DNA from: an uncultured virus (IMG/VR IMGVR_UViG_3300006217_001617)
Taxonomy: Duplodnaviria; Heunggongvirae; Uroviricota; Caudoviricetes
Virus record (IMG/VR): IMGVR_UViG_3300006217_001617
Length of the DNA: 64,000 nucleotides
Reading direction: 5' to 3' (one strand)
Shown: positions 2,534-52,821 of the stretch, piece after piece
How the letters are laid out: the number at the start of each line of letters is the position of its first letter
How positions within the stretch are numbered: the stretch's first letter is position 1
Translations under genes and position numbers: made by a program
The notes under the pieces: generated by a model
What the model saw: only the letters and a program-made list of their open reading frames with translations
Told to the model about the DNA's origin: nothing
Database searches by the model: none

Positions 2534-5470
2534 TCAATATCCAGTTCTGGGCAGCGGCTGGGACGGCTTATAAACCGTGGTTACCCAGCGGTCAGTCGCC
2601 ATGATCCACTGTCCATTGTGAATGCCGCCGACATCCGCCTGATTCACAAACTGGGAGTCGCCGGTGAGCCAGGAGCCGACGTTGCAGATGACCTGCGCCG
2701 CGTCCGCCATCCGGAAGTTCGCGGGGACAACGCCAAACACCACCATAAATTCGGTGACGCACTCATCCGAACCGAGGTTCAGCGCTGCAGGGGACGCATC
2801 CAAAACATAACTCTGCATTGTGCTCAGATTGTCTGCCAGCGTGCGGTAATCCTGCGAATTGTTGGTCTTGTAAACGATCTTGTAATTTCCCTGCACATTG
2901 TATGTGCCAGTCACGATTTTATCGAGCCGCACAGCTGTAGTCGGCAGGGTATCGCGCCAGTAGAATGAGGTCAGAGAATCCGTCGAATTGTTCGCAATAT
3001 TGCTGATATCGTACTTGATCTGCTGCCCAGGCATGACCTGCGTGTAGCCGCGCTTCGTGATGGAAACATTCGTATACACAGCCTTATTGGTCACCGCCAG
3101 CCGCACGATCTGACCAGCAAACTCGATTTCCGTGTCAATCGGCGTGCTGTTCAAGCCATAGAATTCTGCCGCCTGCGTCTCCTTGACGGAATAGCGTCCG
3201 AGGGGCAGAGGCCGCGAGCTTGCGATGCCGTTTTTGTCTGTTTTAATCGTATCCACAAGGTTATTTGCCCTGTCATAGATTTCAAAGACAACGTTCGGCA
3301 GAGGAGTGCCAGCCGCCCAACCATTCATGGTGTTGTAGTCCTCCGAGGTCTTGGTGATCTGAATCTGACCGGTAATCGGCGTGTTCTTCCACTCGATTTC
3401 AGTCGTTTCTCCGGGCTTCACATAGACCGTTTTTGTCTGCGTGTCTACGATGTAACCCTGATTTTCCAGCTCCTTCAGATAGACCTTGCCGGACAGGTCG
3501 AGTGTATTTATATACGCATAGCCGTCCTGATCGGTCGTGAATTGGTCAATCGGATTGTGGTTTCCATCGTACAGCAGGAAGGTCACGCCGTAGATGCCCT
3601 TGCCAGTTACCGAATCGATCTTGTGGAGCAGGATGCCCGAAAAACGCTTGTTCGTGACGGTCAGCGTCGTGGTTTCGCCGTCCTTCACGGTGAAGTAGTG
3701 CGGCGTGGAATCAATTTTGAAACCCTCGCCAGCTCTGATTTCAACCGCGTAGTAATCGCCAGCATCCAGCGGAACATGGACACGGCCGTTCTCATCGGTT
3801 GTAACCGTTTTTACCAGACCGCCGTCCATTCTGCGGATCTCAAAAGTCACGTTCGGAATCCGTTCAGACTGATTCGCTTCGTTGACCTTGACGAGCTCCA
3901 ACCCGCCTGCCGGAGCGTTGTAAAAATACAGCGTTTGAGTATCGTCTGTATTGACAACCACGGTCTGGCTGCGGCTCGCTTCGTCGATGGTGTAGCCGTC
4001 GATTGTCGCGACTTCCGTTACCACATATGTGTTCGGCGCAAGTCCCGGAAGCACAATCTGGCCTTCTTCATTGGTGAAATACAGACCGTTCGAGGAAGTT
4101 TTCCCATCATTTGCGGGTACAAACGTGCCGTCAGCGGTTGTGATCTTGAACTGAACACCCTTTAGCGGTTTCTTGGTGACGCTATCCAGCTTCTGCACAA
4201 TCAGACCACCAAGCGGCTGGTTATAGAAATCCAAAATGTACAGCTGATGATCCTTAATCTGTATCGTTTTAGGAGTGGAATCAAGCAAGTAACCAGTCTT
4301 GGCTTTCAGCTCAGAGACGACGTAACTACCCGGTTCGAGATCGGGAAGCGAGATGTAACCCTGCGCGTCCGTCTGGTATTCACCGTTGGAGTTTCCGACG
4401 ACGGTTCCGTCCGTGCGGGTAATTTTGAACACCACATCAGAGATCGGTTCTTTCGTAGAAGCATCCATTTTGCGAATCAGAAGCCCGCCCAAAGGCTCAT
4501 TCTCGAAGGTGATTTCCTGCGTCTTGCCAGCTTCCATTTTGATGGTTTTGACCGTATTATCGAGACGATAACCGTCCTTTGCCTGCAATTCCGCAATAGT
4601 GTAGTCGCCGTTCGGCAGATGGTCCAAGCGGATAACGCCATTTACATCCGTCGTGTACTCGCCCTCCGGATAGGGATTGCCGTTGCACCCTTGAATCTTG
4701 AACTGGACGCCATCAATCGGTTCGCGGGTAACACTATCAATTTTCTTGATTATCAGGCATCCTTTCTTCGTGTTTGTGAACGTAAGCGTCTGCTGGTCGT
4801 TCGCTTCCACAACCACAGTCTGCGGGGCTGCGTCCAGCACATAATCGTCAAGGGTGCGCGTTTCCGTCACCGTATAAGTGCCTGGTTTCAGCTGCGAAAT
4901 TTCGATCTGACCGGCTTCGTCGGTGACGTAAATGCCATTTGTAGAAGTCATTCCCTCATTGTCGGCAACCAACTCGCCGTTTGCGGTTGTGATCTTGAAT
5001 TCGACGCCTGCAAGCGGTTCGCCGGTCTGGCTGTCCTTTTTCACAATCAGAAGGCCACCTTTCGGGGCATTGAATACCTCGAGCACATAGGTCTGGTGAT
5101 CCTTGATTGTAATGGTTTTCGGGCTGTCATCCAGCAAATATCCAGGCTTCGCCTGCAATTCTGTGATAATGTAGCTGCCCGGTTCAAGGTTCGGAAGCGA
5201 GATATAACCCTGCTCGTCCGTCCGGAATTCGCTGTTAATTGTGCCAACCGTGCTTCCGTCTGCATGGATGATACGGAAAATAACGTCCGAAAGCGGCTCT
5301 TTGGTCTTGGAATCCATCTTTTTCAGAAGGAGTCCGCCAAGCGGTTCGTTCTCAAAGGTGATTTCCTGCGTTTTTCCGGCTTCCATCCTGATGGTTTTGA
5401 CCGTGTTATCGAGGCGATATCCACCCTTCGCCTGCAATTCCGCGACGGTATAATCGCCGTCCGGTAACAT
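2534..5470 (-). CDS. 3' fragment of the split giant SpaA/CnaB-repeat adhesin, ending LPRTGY*
   Basis: Repeated KxD...G..F...TD..G...L.PG.Y.V.E..A..GY domains; begins mid-repeat at the prophage junction; no signal peptide. Confidence 0.9.
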   Translation of the reverse strand: MLPDGDYTVAELQAKGGYRLDNTVKTIRMEAGKTQEITFENEPLGGLLLKKMDSKTKEPLSDVIFRIIHADGSTVGTINSEFRTDEQGYISLPNLEPGSYIITELQAKPGYLLDDSPKTITIKDHQTYVLEVFNAPKGGLLIVKKDSQTGEPLAGVEFKITTANGELVADNEGMTSTNGIYVTDEAGQIEISQLKPGTYTVTETRTLDDYVLDAAPQTVVVEANDQQTLTFTNTKKGCLIIKKIDSVTREPIDGVQFKIQGCNGNPYPEGEYTTDVNGVIRLDHLPNGDYTIAELQAKDGYRLDNTVKTIKMEAGKTQEITFENEPLGGLLIRKMDASTKEPISDVVFKITRTDGTVVGNSNGEYQTDAQGYISLPDLEPGSYVVSELKAKTGYLLDSTPKTIQIKDHQLYILDFYNQPLGGLIVQKLDSVTKKPLKGVQFKITTADGTFVPANDGKTSSNGLYFTNEEGQIVLPGLAPNTYVVTEVATIDGYTIDEASRSQTVVVNTDDTQTLYFYNAPAGGLELVKVNEANQSERIPNVTFEIRRMDGGLVKTVTTDENGRVHVPLDAGDYYAVEIRAGEGFKIDSTPHYFTVKDGETTTLTVTNKRFSGILLHKIDSVTGKGIYGVTFLLYDGNHNPIDQFTTDQDGYAYINTLDLSGKVYLKELENQGYIVDTQTKTVYVKPGETTEIEWKNTPITGQIQITKTSEDYNTMNGWAAGTPLPNVVFEIYDRANNLVDTIKTDKNGIASSRPLPLGRYSVKETQAAEFYGLNSTPIDTEIEFAGQIVRLAVTNKAVYTNVSITKRGYTQVMPGQQIKYDISNIANNSTDSLTSFYWRDTLPTTAVRLDKIVTGTYNVQGNYKIVYKTNNSQDYRTLADNLSTMQSYVLDASPAALNLGSDECVTEFMVVFGVVPANFRMADAAQVICNVGSWLTGDSQFVNQADVGGIHNGQWIMATDRWVTTVYKPSQPLPRTGY

Positions 5471-5598: not shown

Positions 5599-5654
5599 AT
5601 TATATACTCAATTGACTATTTTCTATTGACAGAATAGTCAATTGAGTATATAAT
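5599..5654 (+). promoter_or_regulatory. Consensus sigma70 promoter overlapped by a perfect 22-bp inverted repeat (operator-like)
   Basis: TTGACA (5626)-17 bp-TATAAT (5649); ATTATATACTCAATTGACTATT at 5599-5620 and its reverse complement at 5633-5654. Confidence 0.85.
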
Positions 5655-5685
5655 AGAATCATAAAGAACAGGGAGGACAAAGAAA

Positions 5686-6009
5686 ATGATGTTGACAGCT
5701 GATGTAATCGCAAAGGTCAAGGAAATGGCAAATGACCCGTATCGCGAATACGAATATATTGGTGTTCGAGTTCAAGAGCAAGAGTTTGAACTTGGAGAAA
5801 TGGATCACGTATCTCATGTTTGGGATAACGGAGACGATACGGGCGAGGAACTTAATGGTGTTTGCGCTCTTAAAGCGGACGCCCTCGAACTCGCGGAAAT
5901 GTACTTTGGAGAGCACGCGGCAATTATCGCCGGAAACTCTATTGAATACGGGGAAGACGTTGGAGAAATTATTATCTCCGATGCAGTTGTCATTGAAATT
6001 TTAGCATAA
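5686..6009 (+). CDS. Small highly acidic protein (candidate DNA mimic/anti-defence)
   Basis: GGGAGG RBS; about 25 D/E versus 5 K/R in 107 aa. Confidence 0.8.
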   Translation: MMLTADVIAKVKEMANDPYREYEYIGVRVQEQEFELGEMDHVSHVWDNGDDTGEELNGVCALKADALELAEMYFGEHAAIIAGNSIEYGEDVGEIIISDAVVIEILA

Positions 6010-6020
6010 CAGGAGGCAAA

Positions 6021-6305
6021 ATGATGCGCAGAAAATATGGAGACTGCCAGCGCATTGACGGTGACTGCACAAAATGCGATCTCGTCAGCTATGGCCGGGA
6101 TTGCCATAACCGGCCAATCACAAAAATGGAATGGTGCAGGATGGCTGCCGGGCTGTCACAAAAGGAACTCGCCCAAAAAAGCGGAATCCACCCTGCCCAA
6201 TTGCAAAAAATCGAGGCGGGCACACGGGAGGCCGGGAAGATGGAAGCCAGTACGCTGCTGTCAATTGCGGACGTACTTGGAGTGCATCCGCGGGACCTGA
6301 TATGA
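6021..6305 (+). CDS. XRE-family HTH regulator with Cys-rich N-terminus
   Basis: GLSQKELAQKSGI...LQKIEAG...IADVLGV HTH pattern; four N-terminal Cys; AGGAGG RBS. Confidence 0.85.
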   Translation: MMRRKYGDCQRIDGDCTKCDLVSYGRDCHNRPITKMEWCRMAAGLSQKELAQKSGIHPAQLQKIEAGTREAGKMEASTLLSIADVLGVHPRDLI

Positions 6306-8023
6306 AAGCAAAGGATTTGACCGGTCAAAGGTTTGGGAAGCTCACCGTTTTGAGTTTAGCGGAGCCTGTATACACAAAAGCAGGGAAACCAGCTCGCCGC
6401 TGGAATTGCCGATGTGATTGCGGTAATGAGCTGGTAGTTCTGCAAAGCTCCCTGACATCTAAAAACGGAACCAGGAGCTGCGGGTGCTCCAGAAGCGATT
6501 ATCAGCGGGCGCACATGGAGGACTTAACAGGCAAGCGCTTCGGACGCCTTATTGTACTCAGCCAGGAGGATTTGCCGGAGAAACAAAGCAACGGCAACAC
6601 GGTCGGATGGCGTTGCCGTTGCGACTGCGGGAAAGAGATAGTCGCAACACGTAAACAACTCGTAAATCAAGGATTGAAAAGTTGTGGCTGCCTCTTGTCA
6701 GATACAGCAAGAGATAAAATAAAAAACAACGTATTACGCCATTACAAGGGGACAACGATATCGGCAATTAACCCGAATCGAAGCCCCAATAGAAACAACA
6801 CATCCGGCGTAAAGGGTGTATATTGGTCAAAAAGCGAGAAGAAATGGACTGCAAAAATCGGATTACAAAATAAAAGCATAACCATTGGAAGATTTGATAC
6901 GCTGGAGGATGCAGCAAAAGCAAGGGAGCAGGCCGAGAAGGACATCCACGCCCCTATTATTGCGGAATACGAAAGCGACTCACGTTGCGGTAAGCCTTCA
7001 AAAGAAGAATGCACTGAAATACGTGGGGAGGATTTGACCGGAAAGCGGTTTGGTAAGTTAATTGTCTGGGGAATTGATGAACCTCATTATACATCCAGCG
7101 GAAAACGTCTCAAACAATGGAAGTGCCGCTGCGATTGCGGAAATGAAATATCCGCATTACACCAGGCCCTAAAGCAAGGCGAAATAACAAGCTGCGGATG
7201 TAATGCAAAAAGATATCAAATGAATGAGAGAAAGTATCCGAAAGACTTATCCGGTCTGCGTTTTGGCCGCCTAACAGTTTTAGAGCGGAGAGACAACAAA
7301 TCGGCGAAAGAGCCGTACATGCACGCATATTTGTGCCGTTGCGATTGCGGCACGGAAAAGGTTGTAAGCCGTGTCGCATTGCTGAATGGGAGCACGAAAA
7401 GCTGTGGATGCCTGCGGAAAGAAAACGGAAAAGAAAAGCCCTTAAAAAATTTCAAATTTTTTAAGGGCACGTGTATATCCGCCATTAAAGCCACAGGATT
7501 GACTGCCGCAAATACAAGCGGTGCGCGTGGGGTTACAAAAAATAAAAATGGCAGATACGTTGCTTACATAGGATTCCGCAACAAAACGAGGTACCTCGGA
7601 AGTTTTGATACCCTGGAAGAGGCTGTCGCTGCGAGGTACGCGGCAGAAAGATTGATTTATGATGACGTTATAGGGGAATACGACTCGCAGAATGCAAGTG
7701 GCGCCCCGCAGAACGATGTTGAAAAAAATGAAGATCCGTCCGAATTAACGGAACCGAAAGAAGATGATCCGCAGGGGAGCGAAGACCGCCCCGCAGTTAA
7801 AAAGAAAAGGGGGAGAACGCCAAAAGACATTACAGGGGAGCGGTTTGGCAAGCTGGTTGCGCTGCATCCGGCAGGATACTCGTTACACGTCAGTGTGGTC
7901 TGGACTTGTCAATGTGACTGCGGAAACACTGTAGATGTAAAATTAAACCATCTTACATCAGGTCACACGCGACAGTGCAGGGAATGCGGAAAAGCGGCAA
8001 AAAGGAGGTCACCCCAACAGTGA
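6302..8023 (+). CDS. AP2-domain protein with five DLTGxRFGxL...CxCDCG zinc-binding repeats
   Basis: Two NTSGxxGV...G.FDTLE.A..AR..AE AP2 motifs; ATGA overlap with the HTH gene stop. Confidence 0.85.
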   Translation: MKAKDLTGQRFGKLTVLSLAEPVYTKAGKPARRWNCRCDCGNELVVLQSSLTSKNGTRSCGCSRSDYQRAHMEDLTGKRFGRLIVLSQEDLPEKQSNGNTVGWRCRCDCGKEIVATRKQLVNQGLKSCGCLLSDTARDKIKNNVLRHYKGTTISAINPNRSPNRNNTSGVKGVYWSKSEKKWTAKIGLQNKSITIGRFDTLEDAAKAREQAEKDIHAPIIAEYESDSRCGKPSKEECTEIRGEDLTGKRFGKLIVWGIDEPHYTSSGKRLKQWKCRCDCGNEISALHQALKQGEITSCGCNAKRYQMNERKYPKDLSGLRFGRLTVLERRDNKSAKEPYMHAYLCRCDCGTEKVVSRVALLNGSTKSCGCLRKENGKEKPLKNFKFFKGTCISAIKATGLTAANTSGARGVTKNKNGRYVAYIGFRNKTRYLGSFDTLEEAVAARYAAERLIYDDVIGEYDSQNASGAPQNDVEKNEDPSELTEPKEDDPQGSEDRPAVKKKRGRTPKDITGERFGKLVALHPAGYSLHVSVVWTCQCDCGNTVDVKLNHLTSGHTRQCRECGKAAKRRSPQQ

Positions 8024-8044: not shown

Positions 8045-8707
8045 CTATTTTGTGTTCGCCAGCCGCTTATACAGCGCCTGCGCAAACCGATAACCATCAA
8101 GGTATGTCATTGTCTCATCGCTGAATCCAAAGCGCTCCTGCGCCGTCCTGCGGTCGTCAATCGCGGTGTTGCCTGTCTGCTGTACTGCGATGCCCAGCTG
8201 TGCCAGCACCGCCCGCGCGTAGGCCTGTCCGAATTTGCGCTGCTTGTCCGCAGTATCGGCAATCGTCCGGTCAGCGGAATCCAAGAAAAAGCCCTCACAC
8301 AGCACCGCAGGCGCTTTGACTTGCCGCACCCATCCAAGCGATGTACTGACCTTAATCCCCCGGCTGTTCTGCCCGATCTGCTTAACCTCGGCTTCAATGC
8401 GTTCCGCCAGCTGCCGGGCAGTCTGATTTTTGCCGCTGATGTAGCACTCAAAGCCATCCCCGCCGCCAGCGTTATTGTGCACCTCGACAGCAAGGTCGGG
8501 CTGGAATGCGTTGCACTCTTTGATTTCCTCAGCAAGCCGGTCGTTTTCGTTGCGGGTGCGGCTGATGCCGACGGTCACGCCGTGGCGTTCCAGCTCGGCC
8601 TTCATGGCAAGCGCCATTGTGAGGTTGACATCGCTCTCCCGGAGTCCATTCGCGCAGGCTCCGGGGTCGCTGCCGCCGTGGCCTACGCCGATAAATACCT
8701 TACTCAT
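8045..8707 (-). CDS. Endolysin, N-acetylmuramoyl-L-alanine amidase (Amidase_3)
   Basis: GHGGSDPGA...E, VEVHNNA and AVLCEGFF motifs; follows the holin. Confidence 0.92.
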   Translation of the reverse strand: MSKVFIGVGHGGSDPGACANGLRESDVNLTMALAMKAELERHGVTVGISRTRNENDRLAEEIKECNAFQPDLAVEVHNNAGGGDGFECYISGKNQTARQLAERIEAEVKQIGQNSRGIKVSTSLGWVRQVKAPAVLCEGFFLDSADRTIADTADKQRKFGQAYARAVLAQLGIAVQQTGNTAIDDRRTAQERFGFSDETMTYLDGYRFAQALYKRLANTK

Positions 8708-9179
8708 CGTCGTCCGCACCTCCATCAACCATATGCTCTCCGGCCTCGTTGACCGCTGCCATTGTCATTGCCAGCGCGCGTCGGAAGAACGCGGGCACAG
8801 GCGCGCCCATGTTAACGGCGTGCTCCAGGATGCTGCCCATCTCAGTCAAGATGTACCAAACCACGACCATCGGGCAAAAAAACACCGAATACTGAAATGG
8901 CAGCGTAACCGGCAGATTGCCCAGGATAACGCCCAGCAGCAAATCAGCCATCCCGGCAATGAGCACAGCTAACACGCACCCACATTTGTGCCAGATACCA
9001 GTACGCGCCGCCTCAGAACTCCACGCGTGGTCTCTCATCGCAATCACGCTGCCGCAAACGTAGTCCACCGCCATCAAGAATACCAGCGCAATCACAACCC
9101 ACCCAAACCACCCCCACAGGGCGGTCAGCGCCGCCGCACACGCGGCAAGCGTGAGTTTGAACTGATTAACATTTTCCAC
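8700..9179 (-). CDS. Phage holin
   Basis: TM segments, DY..G, E.GSILE...MGAPVP motifs; overlaps the endolysin start. Confidence 0.88.
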   Translation of the reverse strand: MENVNQFKLTLAACAAALTALWGWFGWVVIALVFLMAVDYVCGSVIAMRDHAWSSEAARTGIWHKCGCVLAVLIAGMADLLLGVILGNLPVTLPFQYSVFFCPMVVVWYILTEMGSILEHAVNMGAPVPAFFRRALAMTMAAVNEAGEHMVDGGADDDE

Positions 9180-9183
9180 GGTA

Positions 9184-9339
9184 TCATACCTCCATAGCAG
9201 CCCTGAACTCAGCCGGAACCAGCTCAGGCAGCCCGCTGTCAATCAGGATTTCCGCGCACCCCGGTTTCAGTGCGCCCGGCACAGCGTCGAACGTCGTCTT
9301 ACCGAGAATCACCCTCTGCGCAAAAAACATAGCCATCAT
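9184..9339 (-). CDS. Small XkdX-like phage protein
   Basis: RVILGKTTFDAVP..LK pattern; lies between tail fibre genes and holin. Confidence 0.6.
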   Translation of the reverse strand: MMAMFFAQRVILGKTTFDAVPGALKPGCAEILIDSGLPELVPAEFRAAMEV

Positions 9340-9386
9340 TAAAACCATCCTCTCAAAATATATTTGACACCGCCGTAACGCGGATA

Positions 9387-9791
9387 TCATACGTCATATA
9401 CCTGCACCGCCATCTCGGCAATGCAGTCCTCCAAAAATTCCTGCCTGTCGGTCGCCGCTGTAATCTGCGCGCGCAGCAGCGTGTTTTCCGTCCTCAGCTG
9501 CTCTATAGGAGACGGCGGCGGCGCGGGGATAGCTGCCCGGTCGGCGGCAATCTCGTTGTCTGTGCGCGGCTGGACGGCTCCGTTGGTGTATTTGTAGAGG
9601 GGAATGCCGTCAAACGTGTACAGCCCGCCCTCAAAATAATGCGACTGGCACAAATTGTATTTGTCACCTGTGCCCTCGTCAATTTTAATCCAGCCGGTTA
9701 AATCGGCGGGGGTGGTGTAGCCTCCGTCACAGCGGGTGATGCGGTTTTGGTCGTCTGTCAATATGTAGACGGATGATTTGTATTCGTTCAT
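9387..9791 (-). CDS. Tail fibre-associated/chaperone-like hypothetical protein
   Basis: AGGAG RBS; C-terminal coiled coil ending EDCIAEMA; position after the fibre gene. Confidence 0.6.
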   Translation of the reverse strand: MNEYKSSVYILTDDQNRITRCDGGYTTPADLTGWIKIDEGTGDKYNLCQSHYFEGGLYTFDGIPLYKYTNGAVQPRTDNEIAADRAAIPAPPPSPIEQLRTENTLLRAQITAATDRQEFLEDCIAEMAVQVYDV

Positions 9792-9802
9792 TTCGTTTCT
9801 CC

Positions 9803-11356: not shown

Positions 11357-11525
11357 TTGTAACCGCCTCCGATTCTACCGTGATGGCACGCCTGGCGGGT
11401 TCTGCGCCCTCCCTGGGCACATTCCACCAGATGGATGTCTTTTCCGCGTCCACTGTAATCTGTACAACTCCATCAATCGGTTTGCCGTCCAACTTAATTT
11501 TGCTCAAAAGCTCTGTAATTGACAT
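11349..11525 (-). CDS. Small hypothetical tail-region protein
   Basis: AAGGAGG RBS before MSITELL; overlaps the next gene start. Confidence 0.5.
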   Translation of the reverse strand: MSITELLSKIKLDGKPIDGVVQITVDAEKTSIWWNVPREGAEPARRAITVESEAVTIG

Positions 11526-11538
11526 ATTGATATCCTCC

Positions 11539-13380: not shown

Positions 13381-13391
13381 GCGCCCACCTC

Positions 13392-28930: not shown

Positions 28931-28933
28931 GCT

Positions 28934-40015: not shown

Positions 40016-40059
40016 GTCCTCTTACACCTCCCTTCGTGGCCGCCCCGGTTGGGGCGGTT

Positions 40060-40236: not shown

Positions 40237-40264
40237 CTTGGCCACCTCCTTTGTTCGTTTGAGA

Positions 40265-40355
40265 CTATTGTAAGTCATATTGGGACAATTGTCAAGAACT
40301 TTTTTGTGCTTACGTGACTTTTTGTTGACAAAGGAACTTTTTTGTGCTATATTCG
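40265..40355. promoter_or_regulatory. Divergent lysis/lysogeny promoters with repeated operator-like motif
   Basis: Plus strand TTGACA(40325)-17-TATATT; minus strand TTGACA(40295)-17-TACAAT; GAACTTTTTTGTGCT at 40296 and 40334. Confidence 0.75.
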
Positions 40356-40376
40356 TTATAGAAGGGAGGAAAACCT

Positions 40377-40892
40377 ATGATTGGTGACCAAATAAAAGCA
40401 CTGAGAAAAACACTTGACCTTACTCAGCAGGCGTTTTGTGAACGAATAGGCATCAAAAGAAACACTATAGCGAAATACGAAACTGGCCGTGGAGAGCCTA
40501 TTGATGCCGTGGTGTCCTTGATATGTCGAGAGTTTGGCGTTAGTGAAGAATGGCTACGAACCGGGAACGGAAAAATGTTTAAGGAAAAGGAGACTGATGC
40601 ATTAGACATCTTGGCTTCCGAATATGGAATGAGCCAAAGCGACCGTATACTTATCGAAAAATTTCTTTCGTTAAAACCTGAGCACCGCCAAGCTGTGATG
40701 CAATACGCTATTGATGTTGCTGCCGCCTTTAACTCTTTAGAAAATACGGTAACAGTATCCGGGCAAATTGATCCGAAAGAGAAAATGTCTGTCGAGGAAG
40801 CCGAGGCGGTTTATATAAAAAGTCGCTTAGATGCTGCGCAGAAAACGGGACCGTCTGTTTTGAATACCTTGTCCGACACAATAACAGGATAA
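40377..40892 (+). CDS. CI-like XRE repressor
   Basis: IKALRK.L.LTQ..F...IGI...I..YE.G...IC..FGVSEEWLRTG.G.MF. Confidence 0.9.
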   Translation: MIGDQIKALRKTLDLTQQAFCERIGIKRNTIAKYETGRGEPIDAVVSLICREFGVSEEWLRTGNGKMFKEKETDALDILASEYGMSQSDRILIEKFLSLKPEHRQAVMQYAIDVAAAFNSLENTVTVSGQIDPKEKMSVEEAEAVYIKSRLDAAQKTGPSVLNTLSDTITG

Positions 40893-40934
40893 ATAAAAAA
40901 GCACCCAAACGACGCTAAAGTAGGAGGATTTCAA

Positions 40935-43534: not shown

Positions 43535-43575
43535 GTATACTAACTGGATTAACCCTCCGGCAGGTGATCCAAACG
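43535..43575. other. Prophage junction (att site, integrase-side end), core TCCGG at 43556-43560
   Basis: Adhesin frame ...DHLP runs into phage-derived EG-TAA; arm GTATACTAACTGGAT is an imperfect inverted match to ATACAATTAGTACAC at 5469-5483. Confidence 0.9.
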
Positions 43576-46500
43576 GATAACGCCGTTGACATCCGTGGTG
43601 TAATCGCCTTCCGGGTAAGGATTGCCGTTACACCCTTGAATCTTGAACTTTACGCCATCAATCGGTTCGCGGGTAACGCTGTCAATTTTCTTAATTATCA
43701 GGCATCCTTTCTTCGTGTTTGTGAACGTAAGAGTCTGCTGATCGTTCGCTTCCACAACCACAGTCTGCGGGGCTGCGTCCAGCACATAATCTTCGAGTGT
43801 GCGCACCTCTGTTACCGTATAAGTACCCGGTTTCAGATGCGAAATCTCAATCTGACCGGCTTCGTCGGTGACATAAATGCCGTTTGTGGAGGTCATGCCC
43901 TCATTGTCGGCAACCAGCTCACCATTTGCGGTTGTAATCTTGAATTCGACGCCTGTAAGCGGTTCGCCAGTCTGGCTATCCTTTTTCACAATCAGGAGAC
44001 CGCCTTTCGGGGCATTGAACACATCGAGGATGTAAGTCTGGTGATCTTTGATCGTGATGGTTTTCGGCGTATCATCAAGGAGATACCCCGGCTTCGCCTG
44101 CACCTCGGTAATGATGTAGCTGCCGGGTTCGAGATTCGGAAGGGAAATGTAACCTTGCTCGTCCGTCCGGAACTCGCTGTTAGTCGTGCCAACCGTTGTC
44201 CCATCTGCATGAATGATACGGAAAATAACATCCGAAAGCGGCTCTTTGGTCTTAGAATCCATCTTTTTCAAGAGGAGACCGCCAAGCGGTTCGTTTTCAA
44301 AAGTCAGCTTTCTGGTCTTTCCTGCTTCGACGTTGACGGTCTGAACAGTGCTGTCGAGACGGTATCCGTCCTTGGTCTGCCGCTCCACCACGGTATAATC
44401 GCCGCTCGGAAGGTGGTTGATCTGGATTACACCATTGCCGTCAGTCGTGAACTCGCCACCCTGATAGATGTTGCCATTGCAGCCCTTGATTTCAAATTTC
44501 ACGCCGGAAAGAGGTTCTTTGGTAACGCTGTCCACCTTTTCGATGAGCAGGCAGCCCTTTTTCGTGTTCGTAAAGGTCAGCACCTGCATATCGTTGGCTT
44601 CCACGACTACTGTCTGCGGAGGTGCATCCAAAATGTAGTCCTCCAGCGTGCGCGTTTCTGTTACCAGATATGCCCCCGGTTTTAGCTGCTTGATTACAAT
44701 CTCACCGTCCGCATTCGTCCTGTAAATGCCGTTTGTGGAGGTCTGGCCTTCATCATTCGGCACAAGCTCGCCGTTTGCAGTGGTGATCTTGAACTCGACA
44801 CCTTCCAGCGGTTCGCCGGTCTGCGAGTCCTTTTTAACGACGACAAGCGCCCCTTTCGGCTGATTAAAGAACTCGATTGTGTATGTCCGGTGGTTCTTAA
44901 TATCAATCGTTTTAGGAGTGTTATCGAGCAAATATCCAGGCTTCGCCTGTATCTCCTGAATCACGTAGCTGCCGGGTTCGATATCCGGAATCGAGATGAA
45001 TCCCTGCTCGTCCGTGTGGTATTCACCATTGGATTCGCCGAACACTGTGCCGTCCGAGCGCGTGATTTTGAACAGTACGTCGCTGAGCGGTTCCTTGGTT
45101 TTGGAGTCCATTTTCTTGACAATCAGACCGCCAAGAGGCTCGTTATCAAAGGTGACTTCCTTGGTCTTGCCAGCTTCAATATTGACCGTATGGACGGTAT
45201 TATCGAGACGATACCCGTTTTTAGCCTGCGTTTCCGTAACGGCATAATCTCCGCTTGGAAGGTGATCGATCCGAATCACGCCATTGCTGTCGGTCGTGAA
45301 GCTTCCTTCAGGATAGGGATTGCCGTTGCATCCCCTGATTTCAAACCGAACATCTGCCAGCGGCTCGTGAGTTACACTGTCAATTTTCTTAATTATCAGG
45401 CATCCTTTCTTCGTATTTGTGAACGTCAGAACCTGCATATCGTTGGCTTCGATTACCACCGTCTGCGGCGGAGCATCCAGCACATAATTGTCCAGAGTTT
45501 TTGTCTCCGTAACGGTATATGCACCTGGCTTTAGCTTGTTGATGACGAATTCCCCGTTCTCGTCGGTGCGATAAATGCCGTTTGAAGAGGTCTGCCCTTC
45601 GTTATTCGGGACAAATTCACCGCTTGCAGTCGTTACTTTGAATTCCACGCCTTCGAGCGGTTCGCCGGTTTGGCTGTCCTTCTTAACGACAACCAGATTT
45701 CCCTTCGGCTGATTGAACAGCTCAAGGACGTAGGTCTGGTGATCCTTAATCGTGATTACCTGTGGGCTGTCGTCCAGAAGGTAACCCGGTTTTGCTTTCA
45801 CTTCCTTGACTATATAGCTTCCTTGAGCAAGATCTGTCAGCGTGATATAGCCATTTTCATCGGTTCGATACTGGCTGTTCGTCGTGCCGACAACTGTACC
45901 ATCCGCGTGAGTAATTTCAAAGATCACATCCGAAAGCGGCTCTTTCGTGACGGAATCCATTTTCTTAATCAGGAGTCCGCCAAGCGGCTTATTTTCGAAT
46001 GTCAGCTTGCGGGTTTTCCCGGCTTCGACGTTTACGATCTGCGCGGTACTATCCAGCTGATAGCCGTCCTTCGCCTGCTTTTCAATAATCGTATAATCGC
46101 CACTCGTAATGTGGTCAATTTGAATCAGACCGTTTCCATCCGTCGTGTAGATATCGGCGGGATAGGCGTTTCCGTTGCAGCCGCGCACCTCGAATTTCAC
46201 GCCGGAAAGCGGTGCTTTCGTAACACTATCGACCTTTTCAATGACGAGACAGCCCTTCTTCGTGTTCGTAAACGTCAGGAGCTGCATATCGTTTTCTTCA
46301 ACTACAACCGTCTGCGGAGTGGTGTCCAGCATGTAGTCGTCCAGCGTGCGCACCTCCGTCACGACATATGCGCCCGGTTTTAACTTGGAAACAACGATTT
46401 CGCCATTAGAATCGGTACGGTAAATGCCGTTTGTCGAAGTCATGCCGCCATTATTCGGCACAAGTTCGCCGTTTGCAGTCGTGATTTTGAACTCAACACC

Positions 46501-49500
46501 TTCCAACGGCTCGCCGGTCTGTGCGTCCTTTTTGACGATAACCAGCGCCCCTTTCGGTTTGTTAAAAAACTCAAGCGTATACGTCTTATGGTCGCGAATT
46601 TCAATGGTTTTCGGCGTATTATCGACCAGATAGCCTGGTTTTGCCTGCACTTCCTGCACCGTGTAGCTCCCCGGCGCAAGCTCCGGAATCGAAATGAAAC
46701 CGCGCTCGTCGGTGCGGTACTCGCCGTTCGACTCGCCAACAACGGAACCGTCCGTGCGCGTGACCTTAAAAATCACCTCGCTGAGCGGTTCCTTCGTGAC
46801 GGAATCCATCTTTTTGATGAGAAGTCCGCCAAGCGGCTTGTTTTCGATGGTGACTTCCTTGGTTTTTCCAGCTGTAACGTTGACCGTGCGGGGACTGCTG
46901 TCCAGCTGGTAGCCGTCTTTCGTCTGCGTTTCAACAATCACATAGTCGCCGCTTGGAATGTGGTCGAGCCGGATCAGTCCGTGGCTGTCGGTCGTGACGG
47001 TTTCCTCAGCATAAGCGTTGCCATTGCTGCCCCTGATTTCAAAGCGGACACCGGAAATCGGCTCATGCGTGACGCTGTCCACTTTGGAGATAACAAGTGA
47101 TCCTTTCCTAGTATTTGTGAAAGTCAGCGTCTGAACATCGTTTGGCTTCACGGCAACCGTCTGCGGCGGCGCGTCCAGCACATAATCGGGAAGGGTTTTA
47201 ACTTCAGAAACGATATATGTGTCCGGTTTCAGCTTGGAAATGAAGATTTCGCCTTTAGAATCCGTCCGGTAGATACCGTTTGAGGTGATCAGACCCTCGT
47301 TGCTGTCCACAACCTCACCGGTCGAAGTCGTTACCTTGAACTCGACGCCTTCCAGCGGTTCTCCTGTTTGACTGTCCTTTTTGACAATCAGAAGTCCGCT
47401 TTTCGGCTGGTTCACGACCTCTAAAACGTAGGTTTGGTGATCCTTGATAGTTACCGTTTTCGGCGTGTCGTCAAGCAAAAATCCAGATTTCGCCTGCACC
47501 TCTTTAACGATGTATGTGCCAGGTTCAAGATCGGGAATTGAGATATAGCCTTCGGAATTCGTCCTGAACTGCCCGTTGGAAATGCCAATCGAGGTTCCGT
47601 CCGCATGGGTCACGCTGAACAACACGTCGGGGATCGGTTCCTTCGTCGTCGCCGACATCTTTTTGATCAGCAGACCACCGAGCGGTTCGTTCTCAAAAGT
47701 TATCTCTTTGCAAGCTCCCGCTTCGACCTTTACGATCTGCGCGGTATCATCCAAACAGTAGCCGTCCTTTGCCTGCGTTTCCACGATGGAATAACATCCG
47801 CTGGGAATATGCGCCAGCTTGAACGTACCGTTTGAGTCCGTTGTGTAGGTTCCTGCGGGGTAATCGCAGCCGTTACAGCCTTTAACCTCGAACTGCACGC
47901 CGGAAAGCGGTGCATGGGTTACGCTGTCAATTTTCTTGACTAAAAGACAGCCCTTCGGCGTGTTCGTGAAGGTGATTGTCTGGGTGTCGTTTGCGTTGAC
48001 AACCACCGTTTGCGGCGCTGCATCCAGCACATAATCCGGAAGTGTTTTCGTTTCAGTAATAATATATGTGCTGGGTTTTAATTTTGAAATTTCGATAACG
48101 CCGTTCGAGTCGGTCTTGTAGATACCGTTCGAGGACGTTACGCCCTCGTTGCTGTCTACTACTTCGCCGGTCGAAGTCGTTATCTTAAACTCAACGCCTT
48201 TCAAAGGTTCTCCCGTAATGCTGTCTTTTTTAATAACGACGAGACCGCCTTTCGGCTGGTTGAAAAATTCGAGGGAATAGGTGCGGTGGTCCTTAATCTC
48301 GATGTGCTTCGGCGTATCGTCGAGCAAAAATCCGGGCTTTGCCTTGACTTCTTGCACCACATAACCTCCCGGTTCCAAATCGGGAATCATGATGAAACCT
48401 CGCTCATCCGTCCGATATTCGCCGTTGGAAGTCCCGACGACCGTGCCGTCCGTTCTGGTAACCTTGAAAATCACATCGGAAAGCGGCTCCTTGGTCACGG
48501 AATTCATCTTTTTCAGCAGAAGTCCGCCTAAAGGCTCGTTTTCGATGGTAATTTTTGCGGTTTTACCGGCTTCGACCTTCGCAACACGGCTGTTGTTCTC
48601 AAAGCGATAACCGTCCGGCGCACGCTTCTCCTCAATCGTGTAGTCGCCGCTGGTCAGGTCTTGCAGAAGGATTTGACCGCTGCTGTTGGTTGTGAACGAA
48701 GTCGCGGGAAAGTTGCTGCCCTTGATTTCAAAAGTTGCGCCCTGAAGTGGGCTGCGCGTCACGCTGTCGATTTTTTCAATCAGCAGCTTACCCTTCGGCG
48801 TGTTCAAAAAAGTCAGCGTTTGTGCATCGTTTGCCGACACAACAACGGTCTGGGAAGCTGTATCAAGTTCGTATCCGTCGACTGTCTTTGTTTCGGAAAC
48901 GATATATGTCCCTGGAGTGAGCTTCAAAAGCACAATCTGGCCGTTTGCATTGGTTTTATACATTCCATTTGTGCTTGTAAGCCCTTCATTGTCAGGGACA
49001 AGTTCGCCGCTGGCAGTCGTGATTTTGAATTCGGCACCCGGCAGGGGCTTTCCCGTAATGCTGTCTTTTTTGACAACAATCAGGCTTCCCTTCGGTTGGT
49101 TCCGAAATTCGAGTGTCATTGTCTCGTTAGCCTTGATTTTAATCGTCTGCGGCACGTCGTCGAGGACATATCCGGAACGTGTGCGGGTTTCCTTCGCGAT
49201 CACGGTCATGCCGGGTTCGAGACCGTCAACATGGATCGTGCCGGAGCTGTCGGTCACATACTTGCCATTTGAGTTTCCGATCACATTGCCGTCGCTGCCG
49301 GTCAGCTGAAACTCAACATCAGACAGCGGCTTACCGGTCGCAGCGTCTTTCTTGACGATGAGCAGGCTGCCCTTTTTATCGTTTCCAAAAGTTATGGTAA
49401 TGACATCCTGCTCTTTGCCAGAAAGGTACACCGTCTGCGCGGAATCGTTGATGACATAGCCTTCCGGCGCGGAAACCTCCTCGATCACATAAGTACCAGC

Positions 49501-52500
49501 TTTTAAACCGGTTTTTACAATCGTGCCGTTGCTGCTGGTCATATACTCGCCGATGGTCGTGCCGCCTGTACCAGAAGTGCCGCCGAGGTAGCGAATACGA
49601 AACCACGCACCCTCCAAAACTTTTCCAGAATCTGCATCGACCTTCTTAATGACAATCGCACTCAGCGGAACATTTTCAAAGGTGAAGGTCTTGTGGCCAC
49701 CTGCCTTGATGTAGGCTTCCTGCGTCGCGGGCTGCTTGATGGAATAGCCTGCGGGCGCTTCCAGCTCGGTGACTTTGTACCAGCCATCCTGCACCTTATC
49801 GAGCTTAATCTGTCCGTTTGCGTCTGTAAAATAGTCGCCAAGGTCATTGATTTCGCCCGTTGCGGTATTGTTGCTGGCATAGGTGATGTGGAACTTTGCA
49901 CCCTTTAACGGGTCGCCGGTCACGCTGTCTACCTTCTGAATCAGGAGCGAAGGCTTCGGATAATTGTAGAAGCGAACAATCCCTGTTTCGTTCGGAACAA
50001 GCGTAATCAGCTGCGGTTTTTCATCAATCAGGTAGCCTTCTGGGACTTTCTTTTCGCTCACCTGATATACCCCAGGTTTCAAATCATTGACTGTAACGGT
50101 TCCGTCCGCGCCCGTAATAACTGTCGTAAGCGTTGACGAGTCTGCTTCGTTAATCGTGAAGGTTACGCCGGGGAGCGGCTTGCCTGTAACCGCATCCGTT
50201 TTTACAATCTTTAGATTAGGCTTTCGGTAGTTGTTGACAACCAGCTTCGAGCCTTTTCCGGGGAACAGTTCAACGTGGTACTCGAGCGTGTTTTTTACAT
50301 AGTGGGCAGGCTCGGCCTGCTCGACTACGGTGTAAACGCCCGGCTCCAGATTCTCAATCAGAATACGGCCATTTTCATCCGTTACCCGGTCAAGATAGTG
50401 CGTTCCGTCCTCAATCTTCGCAATTTTGAAAGTCGCTCCGGGGATGTAAACATCGTTATCCGGGTCGTATTTCAGAATTTCCAGCCACGGTTTTTTCGTG
50501 TTTGTGAACACAAAACGCGCAGTTTCATCTGGATTCAGTTGGATAGTCCGGACGGCATCATCGATCAGATAGCCGTCGATAGTCAACAGCTCCCGCACCT
50601 GATATGCGCCCGGTTCCAGCTTGGAAAGATCAATCTCGCCCTTTGCATCGGTGGTATATTCTTTTGAGAACGTGCCGCCAATCTGCGATATCAAAAACTT
50701 GACATTCGGCATGGGCTTAAGGCTTTCGGAATCGATTTTGACGAGGTACATACCGGGCTTCAGCTGATTCATGAACACAAGCTCCGGCACCTCAGTCTGG
50801 CCGACCTGCAGCTCGATCTGTTGTGGCGTAGAATTTACCACATGCTCCGCATCGGACGCAACCTCTTTTACCATGTAGGTTCCGGGCTTCAGTCCGGTCA
50901 GATTAATCTCGCCGTTCGTATCGGTCTGCTTGCGCCCAAGGGAAACAGCATTGCAAAAAATCTCAAATGTGATACCGGACAGCCGCTTATTGCTCTGCTG
51001 GTCAAACTTAATGATTTTCAGCTTTAACTCTGCGTAATCCTTCATTTCAACCGGAATAATACGTTCTCCGGACGCCATTTCATTCGGGTTGATGTACTGC
51101 GTTACGATTTCGTCCGTCTTCAGGTAGCCCTCCGGAGCCTGCTTCTCTTTGAACGTGTACGTACCTTCAACCAATTCTGTAATTGTGAACGTGCCGTCTT
51201 CCTGCGTCTCATAGTCGCCGATCCGCTGGTTGTTGCGGCTAACCTCAATGATTGCACCCTTGAGGGTTTCACCAGTCACCGCGTCGCGCTTCACAAACAG
51301 AATTGAGGGTTTCCGGTGGTTCTGGAACGTCAGCGTAATTGGAGTCGCTTTGCCGTCCCAGGAGAAGGTTTGCACCGGATTCGGGTCTTTCTCGTAACCT
51401 GGAGGCGAGGTGATTTCGGTTGCCTTCCAGCCACCCTTTTTGTCGGCGGGAAGCTCGATCGTTGCAAGCCCGTCGCCTAGCGTCGTGACCGTGCTCTTGA
51501 AGCCGGACTCGATGTGCTCGACTTCAATCGTGCAGTCCGCAAGAGTTTCGCCGGTGTCAGCATCGACCTTCTTAATAATCAGCTCGCCGGGTTCCTCCGG
51601 TTCGTCTGGGTCATCAGGATCATCGGGATCGTCCGGGTCATCCGGGTCAGGAACATCGACATTTCCCCACTTGATAGGCAAATGATTTTCTGTATCCTGC
51701 CACTGCGGTCCGCTAATCAGGTATTTCTGATAATCTTCACTGTTTTCATAACCACTTGCACGGCCCACAAAAATTTCAAAGGATTCAACAGTCGCGGAAA
51801 CGTCAACATTGAAAGCATAATCGGTTTCTGCTTCCGCCGCTTCTTTCGGTACCCAGACTTTCACAACTGAATAATATTCGGAGCCGTTCACGTTCGCATC
51901 GGTTGTCTGGACAATCGGTTTTGTCGAAATCGGTGTGCCATTGTACGGCTCCGGATCGGCAGGGCTGGAATGGTTCTCATCCTTGACGATCTGGAGTAAA
52001 GTACCCGGAAGGTAATCGGAAAGACCGATCTTTAATGCATTGCTCTGGCAGAATGAAGCCGACGCAGCCTTGATTTCCTGCGTGTAATATTCCTCACCAT
52101 CGTGGGTTTCGGTTGCTTCCGCATTCAGCTCACTGCCGCTGCTGGGCGACCAGTCAATCACACCATTTTGAGAGTGTCCAGGGCCATGCCGCAGATACAT
52201 TCCGACATAATAGTTATGATTGATGGTGTTGGCATAATTGAGCAGTGCCTTGACTGCCGCCATTACACGCGCACCTTCTGTACTGTGTGAGGATGAAATT
52301 TGAATTGCGTTGCCGCTGGTGAATGCCGTGCCGCTGACGCTCAGCTGACCAAGCGCCGCCCACATTGCGGTTTGGGTCGCATAGCGATATTCATCCTCTG
52401 TCAAATCACGGGGAACAGCGGGAAACTGGTTCAGAAACGACTGTAAAGTGAGACGCCCGCTGCCGCGCATAATGACACCCACAGCTTTAGGGTTTTGCGT

Positions 52501-52821
52501 ATAGCCGCTGCCCGCATCCAGCTTGTAGGTATGGCGGTTTGTAGAGGGTGCTACTTCATGAATGCCGTGTTTGCCGTGATTCATACAATATGCCTGGAAT
52601 TTCTCCCCATTTTCGTCCGCGTAGCATTCGTGGATGGGCAAATTTACCCAGGAACCGCCCTTTTGCTCACGAAAATAACTTTGCTTGTCATTTTCAAAAA
52701 CTAAGGTTACTGAGTCTCCGCCGGTGAATGCAGCCGCCTGCGGAAGCTCTCCCGCGAATGAGCTGAACACCGTTGCTGCCGCCAAAACAGAAGACAGCAG
52801 GCGCTTCAATTTGTGCTTCAT
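43549..52821 (-). CDS. 5' fragment (3090 aa) of the giant thioester-domain/SpaA-repeat surface adhesin
   Basis: Signal peptide; YCM...TQTAMW thioester-domain signature; DPD linker; many SpaA/CnaB-like repeats; truncated at att. Confidence 0.92.
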   Translation of the reverse strand: MKHKLKRLLSSVLAAATVFSSFAGELPQAAAFTGGDSVTLVFENDKQSYFREQKGGSWVNLPIHECYADENGEKFQAYCMNHGKHGIHEVAPSTNRHTYKLDAGSGYTQNPKAVGVIMRGSGRLTLQSFLNQFPAVPRDLTEDEYRYATQTAMWAALGQLSVSGTAFTSGNAIQISSSHSTEGARVMAAVKALLNYANTINHNYYVGMYLRHGPGHSQNGVIDWSPSSGSELNAEATETHDGEEYYTQEIKAASASFCQSNALKIGLSDYLPGTLLQIVKDENHSSPADPEPYNGTPISTKPIVQTTDANVNGSEYYSVVKVWVPKEAAEAETDYAFNVDVSATVESFEIFVGRASGYENSEDYQKYLISGPQWQDTENHLPIKWGNVDVPDPDDPDDPDDPDDPDEPEEPGELIIKKVDADTGETLADCTIEVEHIESGFKSTVTTLGDGLATIELPADKKGGWKATEITSPPGYEKDPNPVQTFSWDGKATPITLTFQNHRKPSILFVKRDAVTGETLKGAIIEVSRNNQRIGDYETQEDGTFTITELVEGTYTFKEKQAPEGYLKTDEIVTQYINPNEMASGERIIPVEMKDYAELKLKIIKFDQQSNKRLSGITFEIFCNAVSLGRKQTDTNGEINLTGLKPGTYMVKEVASDAEHVVNSTPQQIELQVGQTEVPELVFMNQLKPGMYLVKIDSESLKPMPNVKFLISQIGGTFSKEYTTDAKGEIDLSKLEPGAYQVRELLTIDGYLIDDAVRTIQLNPDETARFVFTNTKKPWLEILKYDPDNDVYIPGATFKIAKIEDGTHYLDRVTDENGRILIENLEPGVYTVVEQAEPAHYVKNTLEYHVELFPGKGSKLVVNNYRKPNLKIVKTDAVTGKPLPGVTFTINEADSSTLTTVITGADGTVTVNDLKPGVYQVSEKKVPEGYLIDEKPQLITLVPNETGIVRFYNYPKPSLLIQKVDSVTGDPLKGAKFHITYASNNTATGEINDLGDYFTDANGQIKLDKVQDGWYKVTELEAPAGYSIKQPATQEAYIKAGGHKTFTFENVPLSAIVIKKVDADSGKVLEGAWFRIRYLGGTSGTGGTTIGEYMTSSNGTIVKTGLKAGTYVIEEVSAPEGYVINDSAQTVYLSGKEQDVITITFGNDKKGSLLIVKKDAATGKPLSDVEFQLTGSDGNVIGNSNGKYVTDSSGTIHVDGLEPGMTVIAKETRTRSGYVLDDVPQTIKIKANETMTLEFRNQPKGSLIVVKKDSITGKPLPGAEFKITTASGELVPDNEGLTSTNGMYKTNANGQIVLLKLTPGTYIVSETKTVDGYELDTASQTVVVSANDAQTLTFLNTPKGKLLIEKIDSVTRSPLQGATFEIKGSNFPATSFTTNSSGQILLQDLTSGDYTIEEKRAPDGYRFENNSRVAKVEAGKTAKITIENEPLGGLLLKKMNSVTKEPLSDVIFKVTRTDGTVVGTSNGEYRTDERGFIMIPDLEPGGYVVQEVKAKPGFLLDDTPKHIEIKDHRTYSLEFFNQPKGGLVVIKKDSITGEPLKGVEFKITTSTGEVVDSNEGVTSSNGIYKTDSNGVIEISKLKPSTYIITETKTLPDYVLDAAPQTVVVNANDTQTITFTNTPKGCLLVKKIDSVTHAPLSGVQFEVKGCNGCDYPAGTYTTDSNGTFKLAHIPSGCYSIVETQAKDGYCLDDTAQIVKVEAGACKEITFENEPLGGLLIKKMSATTKEPIPDVLFSVTHADGTSIGISNGQFRTNSEGYISIPDLEPGTYIVKEVQAKSGFLLDDTPKTVTIKDHQTYVLEVVNQPKSGLLIVKKDSQTGEPLEGVEFKVTTSTGEVVDSNEGLITSNGIYRTDSKGEIFISKLKPDTYIVSEVKTLPDYVLDAPPQTVAVKPNDVQTLTFTNTRKGSLVISKVDSVTHEPISGVRFEIRGSNGNAYAEETVTTDSHGLIRLDHIPSGDYVIVETQTKDGYQLDSSPRTVNVTAGKTKEVTIENKPLGGLLIKKMDSVTKEPLSEVIFKVTRTDGSVVGESNGEYRTDERGFISIPELAPGSYTVQEVQAKPGYLVDNTPKTIEIRDHKTYTLEFFNKPKGALVIVKKDAQTGEPLEGVEFKITTANGELVPNNGGMTSTNGIYRTDSNGEIVVSKLKPGAYVVTEVRTLDDYMLDTTPQTVVVEENDMQLLTFTNTKKGCLVIEKVDSVTKAPLSGVKFEVRGCNGNAYPADIYTTDGNGLIQIDHITSGDYTIIEKQAKDGYQLDSTAQIVNVEAGKTRKLTFENKPLGGLLIKKMDSVTKEPLSDVIFEITHADGTVVGTTNSQYRTDENGYITLTDLAQGSYIVKEVKAKPGYLLDDSPQVITIKDHQTYVLELFNQPKGNLVVVKKDSQTGEPLEGVEFKVTTASGEFVPNNEGQTSSNGIYRTDENGEFVINKLKPGAYTVTETKTLDNYVLDAPPQTVVIEANDMQVLTFTNTKKGCLIIKKIDSVTHEPLADVRFEIRGCNGNPYPEGSFTTDSNGVIRIDHLPSGDYAVTETQAKNGYRLDNTVHTVNIEAGKTKEVTFDNEPLGGLIVKKMDSKTKEPLSDVLFKITRSDGTVFGESNGEYHTDEQGFISIPDIEPGSYVIQEIQAKPGYLLDNTPKTIDIKNHRTYTIEFFNQPKGALVVVKKDSQTGEPLEGVEFKITTANGELVPNDEGQTSTNGIYRTNADGEIVIKQLKPGAYLVTETRTLEDYILDAPPQTVVVEANDMQVLTFTNTKKGCLLIEKVDSVTKEPLSGVKFEIKGCNGNIYQGGEFTTDGNGVIQINHLPSGDYTVVERQTKDGYRLDSTVQTVNVEAGKTRKLTFENEPLGGLLLKKMDSKTKEPLSDVIFRIIHADGTTVGTTNSEFRTDEQGYISLPNLEPGSYIITEVQAKPGYLLDDTPKTITIKDHQTYILDVFNAPKGGLLIVKKDSQTGEPLTGVEFKITTANGELVADNEGMTSTNGIYVTDEAGQIEISHLKPGTYTVTEVRTLEDYVLDAAPQTVVVEANDQQTLTFTNTKKGCLIIKKIDSVTREPIDGVKFKIQGCNGNPYPEGDYTTDVNGVIRLDHLPEG
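43556..49300 (-). repeat. 849-bp (283-aa, three-domain) tandem super-repeat, continuing at ~4200-5464
   Basis: Equivalent positions at 43556, 44405, 45254, 46103, 46952, 47801, 48650 and at 5460, 4611. Confidence 0.9.

Follow-up and report, generated by a model that had tools for sequence, protein, structure and literature searches.

Genes interrupted by serine-integrase elements are known from skin in sigK and from the Listeria comK prophages. SPbeta interrupts spsM and shows active lysogeny via SprA/SprB; the passages of PMC5499854 that describe it add that excision by serine integrases requires a directionality factor, that the site is restored exactly, and that directionality factors have no common motif. 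For conjugation, parts of PMC8092201 describe a class II thioester adhesin that is needed for efficient transfer of pLS20, with a gain of ~1,000-fold in liquid medium and of 15-fold on solid medium, and nested mobile elements are treated in portions of PMC12084326 and PMC5704250. The present analysis concerns a window of 64,000 nucleotides, i.e. the whole stretch of DNA of an uncultured Caudoviricetes virus (IMG/VR IMGVR_UViG_3300006217_001617), in which a prophage with a large serine integrase splits the gene of a giant thioester adhesin. By its neighbouring genes, the adhesin probably belongs to a conjugative element of Clostridia. A first-pass annotation of this window had proposed the arrangement as a phage-operated switch of adhesion and conjugation. 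The clean insertion of the prophage within the adhesin gene is confirmed, far beyond chance, whereas the switch is not supported.

The 5' part of the adhesin gene is an open reading frame (ORF) of 3090 aa at 43549..52821 on the minus strand with the C-terminus ...IRLDHLPEG*, and the 3' part is an ORF of 978 aa at 2534..5470 on the same strand with the N-terminus MLPDGDYTVAELQ and the C-terminus LPRTGY*. The adhesin DNA itself covers 43556..52821, which encodes the signal peptide, the class II thioester domain, and 29 SpaA/CnaB-type domains, and 2534..5459, which encodes 9 SpaA domains and ends with LPRTGY and a stop, without a transmembrane tail. In the lysogen, the stop codon of the 3090-aa frame (43549-43551) is phage DNA. 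The ATG at 5470 is contributed by the phage arm, and no Shine-Dalgarno sequence precedes it, so the C half of the adhesin is probably not made. Both junctions share TCCGG (43556-43560 and 5460-5464), which by itself is weak evidence with 141 copies on the plus strand of the window. The insert measures 38,096 bp. Joining the two halves gives 12,192 nt, equal to 4,063 codons plus a stop, in frame, and the 283-aa repeat period (residues 1386, 1669 ... 2801, the junction, and residue 282 of the C half) continues unbroken over the insertion site. Both halves are free of other lesions. The ORF ends, the shared motif, the repeat-matching frame, and the undamaged halves had all been described correctly in the first-pass annotation.

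Uninterrupted forms of the gene, which that annotation had proposed to look for, were found. The natural unsplit alleles P0252 and P0243 have 92-93% identity to the C half and read IRLDHLPDGDY at the matching position, and contigs of related adhesin alleles in run X2 are also continuous across the insertion site. Exact frame restoration on excision, as in SPbeta and skin, is predicted from the joined halves and from these alleles. Both junctions are present in an IMG/VR record, with 99.98% identity over 11,916 nt and 99.94% over 6,618 nt and few single-base differences, and a contig of run X1 spans the integrase-side junction (43298-43605) with zero differences. The earlier doubt about misassembly is thus not borne out at either junction in the record, nor at the integrase side in X1. 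These copies may come from one strain lineage with the window; they rule out an artefact, yet do not represent independent insertions. The repeats flanking the prophage (43558-44404 and 4613-5459) are 86% alike and differ by 83 synonymous and 24 non-synonymous codon changes. Their recombination would on paper delete the prophage in frame, which offers an exit independent of the integrase. Both P0252 and P0243 carry one repeat fewer. In these shorter alleles, most of the first 15 positions at which the repeats differ carry the residue of the N-side repeat, and most of the last 10 carry that of the C-side repeat; such an N-to-C hybrid fits a past exchange between these repeats, without demonstrating curing.

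The attachment (att) sites agree with this geometry. The integrase-side hybrid site (43538..43576, plus strand) consists of an 18-nt phage arm at 43538-43555, the TC crossover at 43556-43557 within TCCGG, and the adhesin arm. The distal hybrid site (5441..5480, plus strand) consists of the adhesin arm, TCCGG at 5460-5464, and the phage arm up to TTAGTA at 5480. The crossover dinucleotide TC was assigned by comparison with the natural attP of L002, a 65% relative with the same core, in which the attP core is followed by what is presumably a holin-like gene. An inverted repeat of the joined phage ends next to the integrase had been noted before and is indeed present, but its arms are 18+2+19 nt. 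The attP forms, seen only in relatives of the window prophage, number 20 sites (attP circles or free genomes, 20 loci) and each have 19+2+19 nt; the scoring script assumed 19-nt arms, so that other geometries would go unscored. The left arm at 43538-43555 is therefore one base short of the relatives' arm. It is probably a lineage trait, because a contig of run X9 with a 99% identical integrase crosses the short arm with 0 gaps, and the same match disfavours a crippling lesion.

Three scans returned 169 loci with an integrase match. The match extended to the C-terminus in 150 of them, and a junction could be seen in 127; the target tally omits 8 loci with less than 44% identity. In the integrase tree, obtained by a quick search with support from the Shimodaira-Hasegawa-like approximate likelihood ratio test (SH-aLRT) only and no bootstrap, the window integrase groups with P0004-P0008 and P0010 as sister (SH-aLRT 99) to a 21-locus clade with mostly a TC core. 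Outside this sister clade, the 97 junctions comprise 66 in ABC-ATPase DEP codons, 19 attP, and 12 others, one of which is an attP by eye. Some of these 12 presumably resemble VirB4 or TopB genes. Within the sister clade, 15 loci (9 distinct sites; among them L013, L016, L036, part of L120-L134, and L143) cut a DUF6017/HTH_36 replication-like gene at LSLP, and the remainder comprises 1 attP and 5 loci in four other genes. Two of these loci cut one serine-recombinase gene at one site, one lies in what we take to be an IS21-like transposase gene (Pfam blank), another presumably in a sigma-factor-like gene, and the fifth, L014, at an adhesin junction. The core is GT in the outer branches that use ABC ATPases, whereas it is mostly TC in the sister clade that uses DUF6017. 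In addition, a CI-like repressor lies upstream in 15 of the 21 sister-clade loci, and DUF6017 is located within the same gene set as the window element (L199). Tight integrase branches use several genes, and the window's own cluster has one readable site. Judged from these junctions, the relatives show a relaxed specificity for a loose site, in which the core is flanked by a few symmetric bases, and a shift towards genes of mobile elements seems to have taken place in the sister clade.

Apart from copies of the window's own, no clean adhesin insertion was seen among the integrase-family junctions, so that the search for homologues in SpaA-repeat genes, also proposed earlier, gave no clean case. 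L014 has an adhesin junction, but the 3' half of this adhesin is found at a distance of 19 kb, in inverted orientation and fused with the 5' end of a DUF6017 gene. It was rejected as a second prophage in the adhesin, since an inversion joins the DUF6017 site to the adhesin site, and as a rearrangement it shows that adhesin repeats act as secondary sites. G003:C8:404900-427470 (L191, L192) carries a ~22-kb inversion between a DUF6017 att site and an adhesin site; what is left there is the remnant of a prophage together with a DUF6017-SpaA fusion frame of 1250 aa. When 401 genomes of the family of G003 were searched at the DNA level, 4 integrase matches were obtained; three of them were new, with 38-43% identity and positions in other genes. 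In the same 401 genomes, the adhesin occurs in 56 (87 matches), with 62 matches in frames of at least 1400 aa. Sixteen of the 25 short frames were retrieved; 6 are at contig ends and 10 are truncated, frameshifted, or stopped, and this integrase family adjoins none of the 10 broken frames examined. Broken adhesins are common and usually reflect ordinary decay.

Near-identical phages also occur away from this adhesin. In run X5, a 14.8-kb phage contig with a depth of 27.9 matches 42017-43560 with 27 differences (~98% integrase DNA identity), departs from the reference at 43560, and continues for 2.6 kb in other DNA, while the adhesin bins 43938-46772 have a depth of 0. A contig of run X9 matches 42260-43561 with 9 differences and 0 gaps (~99% identical integrase DNA) and departs at 43561. 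The sequences place the X5 and X9 phages as free phage or at other sites, not in this adhesin allele. A target gene conserved across related integrases and hosts was found neither among the relatives nor in X5/X9 or the 401 genomes.

The probable explanation is an insertional knockout that serine-integrase chemistry makes precisely reversible as a by-product. As read from the sequence, the phage, a temperate siphovirus of gut Clostridia, integrated via its large serine integrase into the adhesin gene of a conjugative element, at a TC dinucleotide in the Leu-Pro-Asp codons of one adhesin repeat. In the sister clade, most junctions lie at a similar Leu-Pro-Glu site, again in an element of this kind but within its DUF6017 gene. 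The lysogen likely makes a secreted 3090-aa thioester protein that lacks the C-terminal third and the LPRTGY end. By analogy with pLS20, the mating adhesin would then probably be inactive and transfer of the element reduced. Since serine integrases make no duplication, excision would restore the gene exactly. Excision would most likely occur on lytic induction, which would make restoration of the adhesin a by-product, and rare survivors would be revertants and not a regulated state. The outcome expected with fair confidence is accordingly a lysogen whose secreted adhesin is truncated and unsorted and whose transfer is impaired, with restoration mainly on lytic induction.

The knockout is favoured by the full lytic gene set, the dispersed targets of the family, the unsplit close alleles, and the X5/X9 contigs elsewhere. 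Several points weigh on the other side. Many clade loci may stem from a few mouse studies, and the window integrase shares no more than 60-66% identity with the clade that targets DUF6017, of which it is a sister and not a member. The window sub-branch might prefer adhesin repeats, as its closest relatives P0004-P0006 (72-87%) are without readable junctions. The X5/X9 DNA beyond the core may be attP or another adhesin that is less than 85% alike. Finally, intact lytic genes are compatible with active lysogeny, given that SPbeta is an active prophage according to parts of PMC5499854.

Next to the knockout stands adaptive parasitism, which is rather unlikely here. It states that a phage branch was selected to land in conjugative elements; the adhesin site would spare the transfer and replication genes, so that the prophage rides along at reduced efficiency, and the DUF6017 insertions would disarm a competing element. 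The change of core from GT to TC, which goes together with a move away from ABC ATPases and towards DUF6017 and further genes of mobile elements, speaks for it, as do the presence of DUF6017 in the gene set of the window element, the CI-like repressor beside most clade loci, and the intact syntenic element with TrbL, a VirB4-like ATPase, and a MobL relaxase. Precedents of phage carriage are described in parts of PMC12934698 and PMC13651849, and loss of the pLS20 adhesin costs only ~15-fold on solid medium in the passages of PMC8092201. On the other hand, the elements are multi-copy per genome, with at least 8 adhesin and at least 8 DUF6017 matches in G003, and a conserved multi-copy site explains the choice of target without any transfer benefit. 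Moreover, no co-transfer was seen, and the window covers only part of its element. A broader scenario is tentative, and only slightly better placed: a phage branch of gut Clostridia may have retargeted its integrase from ABC ATPases to conjugative-element genes, either disarming the element or, as here, removing only its mating adhesin while the phage stays aboard as cargo; full transfer would return once the phage is lost, exactly or through the repeats, and the adhesin family would be sorted by a tail-less LPxTG[YWF]-stop and a dedicated sortase.

Active lysogeny, which corresponds to the switch proposed earlier, is improbable. Host signals would cause non-lytic excision that restores the adhesin for mating or adhesion, followed by later re-integration. 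The clean, in-frame, and reversible geometry would suit such a cycle, and so would the 20 loci of relatives as attP circles or free genomes, the absence of other lesions in both halves, and the same junction in the IMG/VR record and run X1. However, unlike the elements in spsM or sigK, this family has no conserved target gene. Its relatives use ABC ATPase or DUF6017 genes, unsplit alleles exist elsewhere, and near-identical integrases (X5/X9) sit in other contexts. Neither the halves nor the phage show decay and both seem recent, which any new insertion would show as well. No directionality factor or host-controlled promoter was identified in the window, and nothing shows excision uncoupled from lysis. 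Homologues of the integrase largely use unrelated sites, although the window sub-branch itself has one readable site. An assembly artefact through the adhesin repeats, even though the gene is highly repetitive with such similar repeats beside the prophage, is next to negligible, as both junctions fit the att geometry of the integrase family, recur in another assembly and a run, and are flanked by repeats that differ mostly at synonymous sites.

The adhesin protein has an N-terminal TED domain (Pfam PF08341, E 1.9e-6). In an alignment of 46 rows, Cys79 is nearly invariant and its probable partner Gln365 is invariant. The model of this domain has a predicted local distance difference test (pLDDT) score of 84.9, and its best match is EfmTIE86 (6FWY, E 2.3e-10); the single-sequence fold was poor (pLDDT 41.8) and a sequence search of PDB was blank. 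Alignment and model together confirm a class II thioester domain, in which the bond itself is predicted. At the other end, LPRTG is followed by one residue and the stop, with no hydrophobic tail, which departs from a canonical sortase substrate. LPxTG[YWF]-stop without a membrane tail ends 109 of the 120 adhesin homologues (P0123-P0242; window 2534-2551, minus strand), and the highest 17-residue hydropathy in the last 60 aa of the homologues is 1.31. The first-pass annotation was right that the lysogen product lacks LPRTG, but the anchoring of this family is non-canonical. A conserved upstream sortase and a C-terminally anchored protein suggest a dedicated non-canonical sorting route. Close homologues of the adhesin carry the source labels Clostridiaceae, Butyricicoccus, and Eubacteriales.

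The upstream element genes (52896..56244, minus strand) encode a transglutaminase-like protein, a sortase (54104-54994), which lies two genes upstream of the adhesin, and a protein with a C-terminal membrane anchor (54991-56244), in an order conserved in related elements. The downstream genes (547..2455, minus strand) encode DUF3852, which is TrbC/VirB2-like in a relative, the VirB6-like TrbL, and DUF7768. A promoter-like site (10/12), which bears on a possible polar effect of the insertion on DUF3852/TrbL, lies at 2543-2516, in a scan whose total of 8 is near the chance value of 5.4 +/- 2.7. Further element genes (56075..63873, minus strand) encode a PAPS-reductase-like protein, SpoVG, an adenine methyltransferase, DUF4314, and two ArdA antirestriction proteins. 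The transfer-related genes within the window are TrbL, DUF3852, and ArdA, and the element ends lie outside it. The intact G003 element is syntenic with the window; its VirB4-like ATPase and MobL relaxase are known only from this relative and not from the window. A Pfam scan of 67 window ORFs, made without a dedicated search, named no resistance gene. The genome of G003 holds at least 8 adhesin-family copies and 8 DUF6017 matches, i.e. many related conjugative elements. Among the runs listed, those that carry a habitat label are mouse or mouse-gut metagenomes.

By its gene families, the insert is a complete siphovirus-type temperate prophage with all lytic genes open. Head, tail, lysis, replication, and repressor modules are all present, and the small terminase is named by none of the family matches. 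The 455-aa integrase (42161..43528, plus strand) has Resolvase, Recombinase, and Zn ribbon domains and no DUF4368 match. The lysogeny control region (39327..41984, both strands) contains a CI-like repressor (40377-40892, plus), a divergent small ORF (40060-40278, minus), and a 349-aa protein with no family match (40935-41984, plus). The early and replication genes (29318..39338, minus) encode an initiator, DnaB helicase, a PcfJ-like protein, SSB, and a second Rep-like protein, with DUF2321 (38856-39338, plus) on the opposite strand. The early region holds two copies of a 52-nt repeat (38802-38852 and 39652-39703; 92% alike), and contigs show a 619-nt 'goes back' joint nearby. The late genes, within 8045..29302 on the minus strand, are open throughout; they encode an HNH protein, terminase, portal, protease, major capsid, and connectors, together with major tail, tape measure, Dit, two tail proteins, a fibre-like protein, holin, and amidase. 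Two paralogous genes for tail endopeptidase-like proteins (613 and 628 aa) lie in tandem at 11539-15278 (minus), and each matches PF06605 and phrog_4311.

The phage end cassette (5599..8023, plus strand) has a promoter, a 107-aa ORF, a helix-turn-helix (HTH) protein, and a 630-aa AP2/HNH protein. The sigma-70 promoter (12/12, 5626-5654) is overlapped by a perfect 22-nt inverted repeat, and the acidic 107-aa ORF has no family in Atlas. This layout suggests that 5599-6305 is an autoregulated cassette in which the promoter and inverted repeat drive the 107-aa ORF and the HTH gene. The 630-aa protein (6131-8023, plus) has repeated Cys motifs and AP2/HNH matches and is oriented against the lysis genes; it is probably a homing-endonuclease-like element. 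INPHARED held nothing above 60%, with phiCD27 the best at 39%. IMG/VR, searched with the integrase, P0005, and three short natural junction stretches, turned up no record besides the same one and L002; in one of these searches, 12 of the 13 matches were due to chance.

A full-text search, mainly of open-access literature, found no paper on a prophage that splits a thioester mating adhesin, on phage integrases that target DUF6017 or ABC-ATPase genes (the supplements of PMC10083194 being outside it), or with the string LPKTGY of the tail-less sorting signal. At this locus, a giant thioester adhesin of a conjugative element from the gut has been knocked out naturally and precisely, and a comparison of lysogen and cured cells would directly test the role of the adhesin in Clostridial mating-pair formation, as shown for pLS20. 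The integrase family provides a clear case of target evolution, from GT and ABC ATPases to TC and mobile-element genes, that bears on the conflict of phages with integrative and conjugative elements (ICEs) as well as on the spread of gut prophages. The tail-less LPxTG signal, if the neighbouring sortase truly processes it, would be a sorting route unmatched in the literature searched. The main value lies in the target shift and in this signal rather than in the proposed switch.

Compared with SPbeta, skin, and the comK prophages, the locus shares the large serine integrase, the short core with symmetric flanks, the inverted-repeat attP, and exact frame restoration, and with SPbeta also the intact lytic genes. 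In contrast, the interrupted gene here belongs to another mobile element, no single target gene is fixed within the family, and neither a directionality factor nor host-timed excision is known. The multi-targeting large serine recombinases of Durrant et al. (PMC10083194, in part) resemble the present family in that close integrases use several unrelated target genes with a short motif around the core dinucleotide. They differ in that DUF4368 is found in 63% of their clade, with no match here, and in that one target gene, ABC ATPase or DUF6017, dominates each branch here. The main-text passages of PMC10083194 make no mention of these two targets, which its supplements, outside the search, may list. 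The adhesin resembles TIE-pLS20 (p34) and EfmTIE86 (PDB 6FWY) in its signal peptide, class II thioester domain, and CnaB/SpaA-type stalk, and TIE-pLS20 also in its location in a conjugation region and its non-canonical surface attachment, as described in parts of PMC8092201. TIE-pLS20, however, has 778 aa compared to 4,063 aa here, and in the same parts has neither LPxTG motif nor sortase, whereas here a tail-less terminal LPxTG occurs with a sortase two genes upstream. Prophages on conjugative elements are already known, and the chemistry is that of SPbeta and skin with the conserved-target feature lacking. Temperate phages linked to conjugative elements are described, in the portions consulted, for the Hodor megaplasmids (PMC12934698) and phage-ICE tandems (PMC13651849) of gut Bacillota or streptococci, and for a C. 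difficile CTn1-like element with a partial prophage (PMC3158075). Those associations are tandem, plasmid-borne, or intergenic, whereas here the phage is nested within the element and breaks the gene of its mating-pair adhesin.

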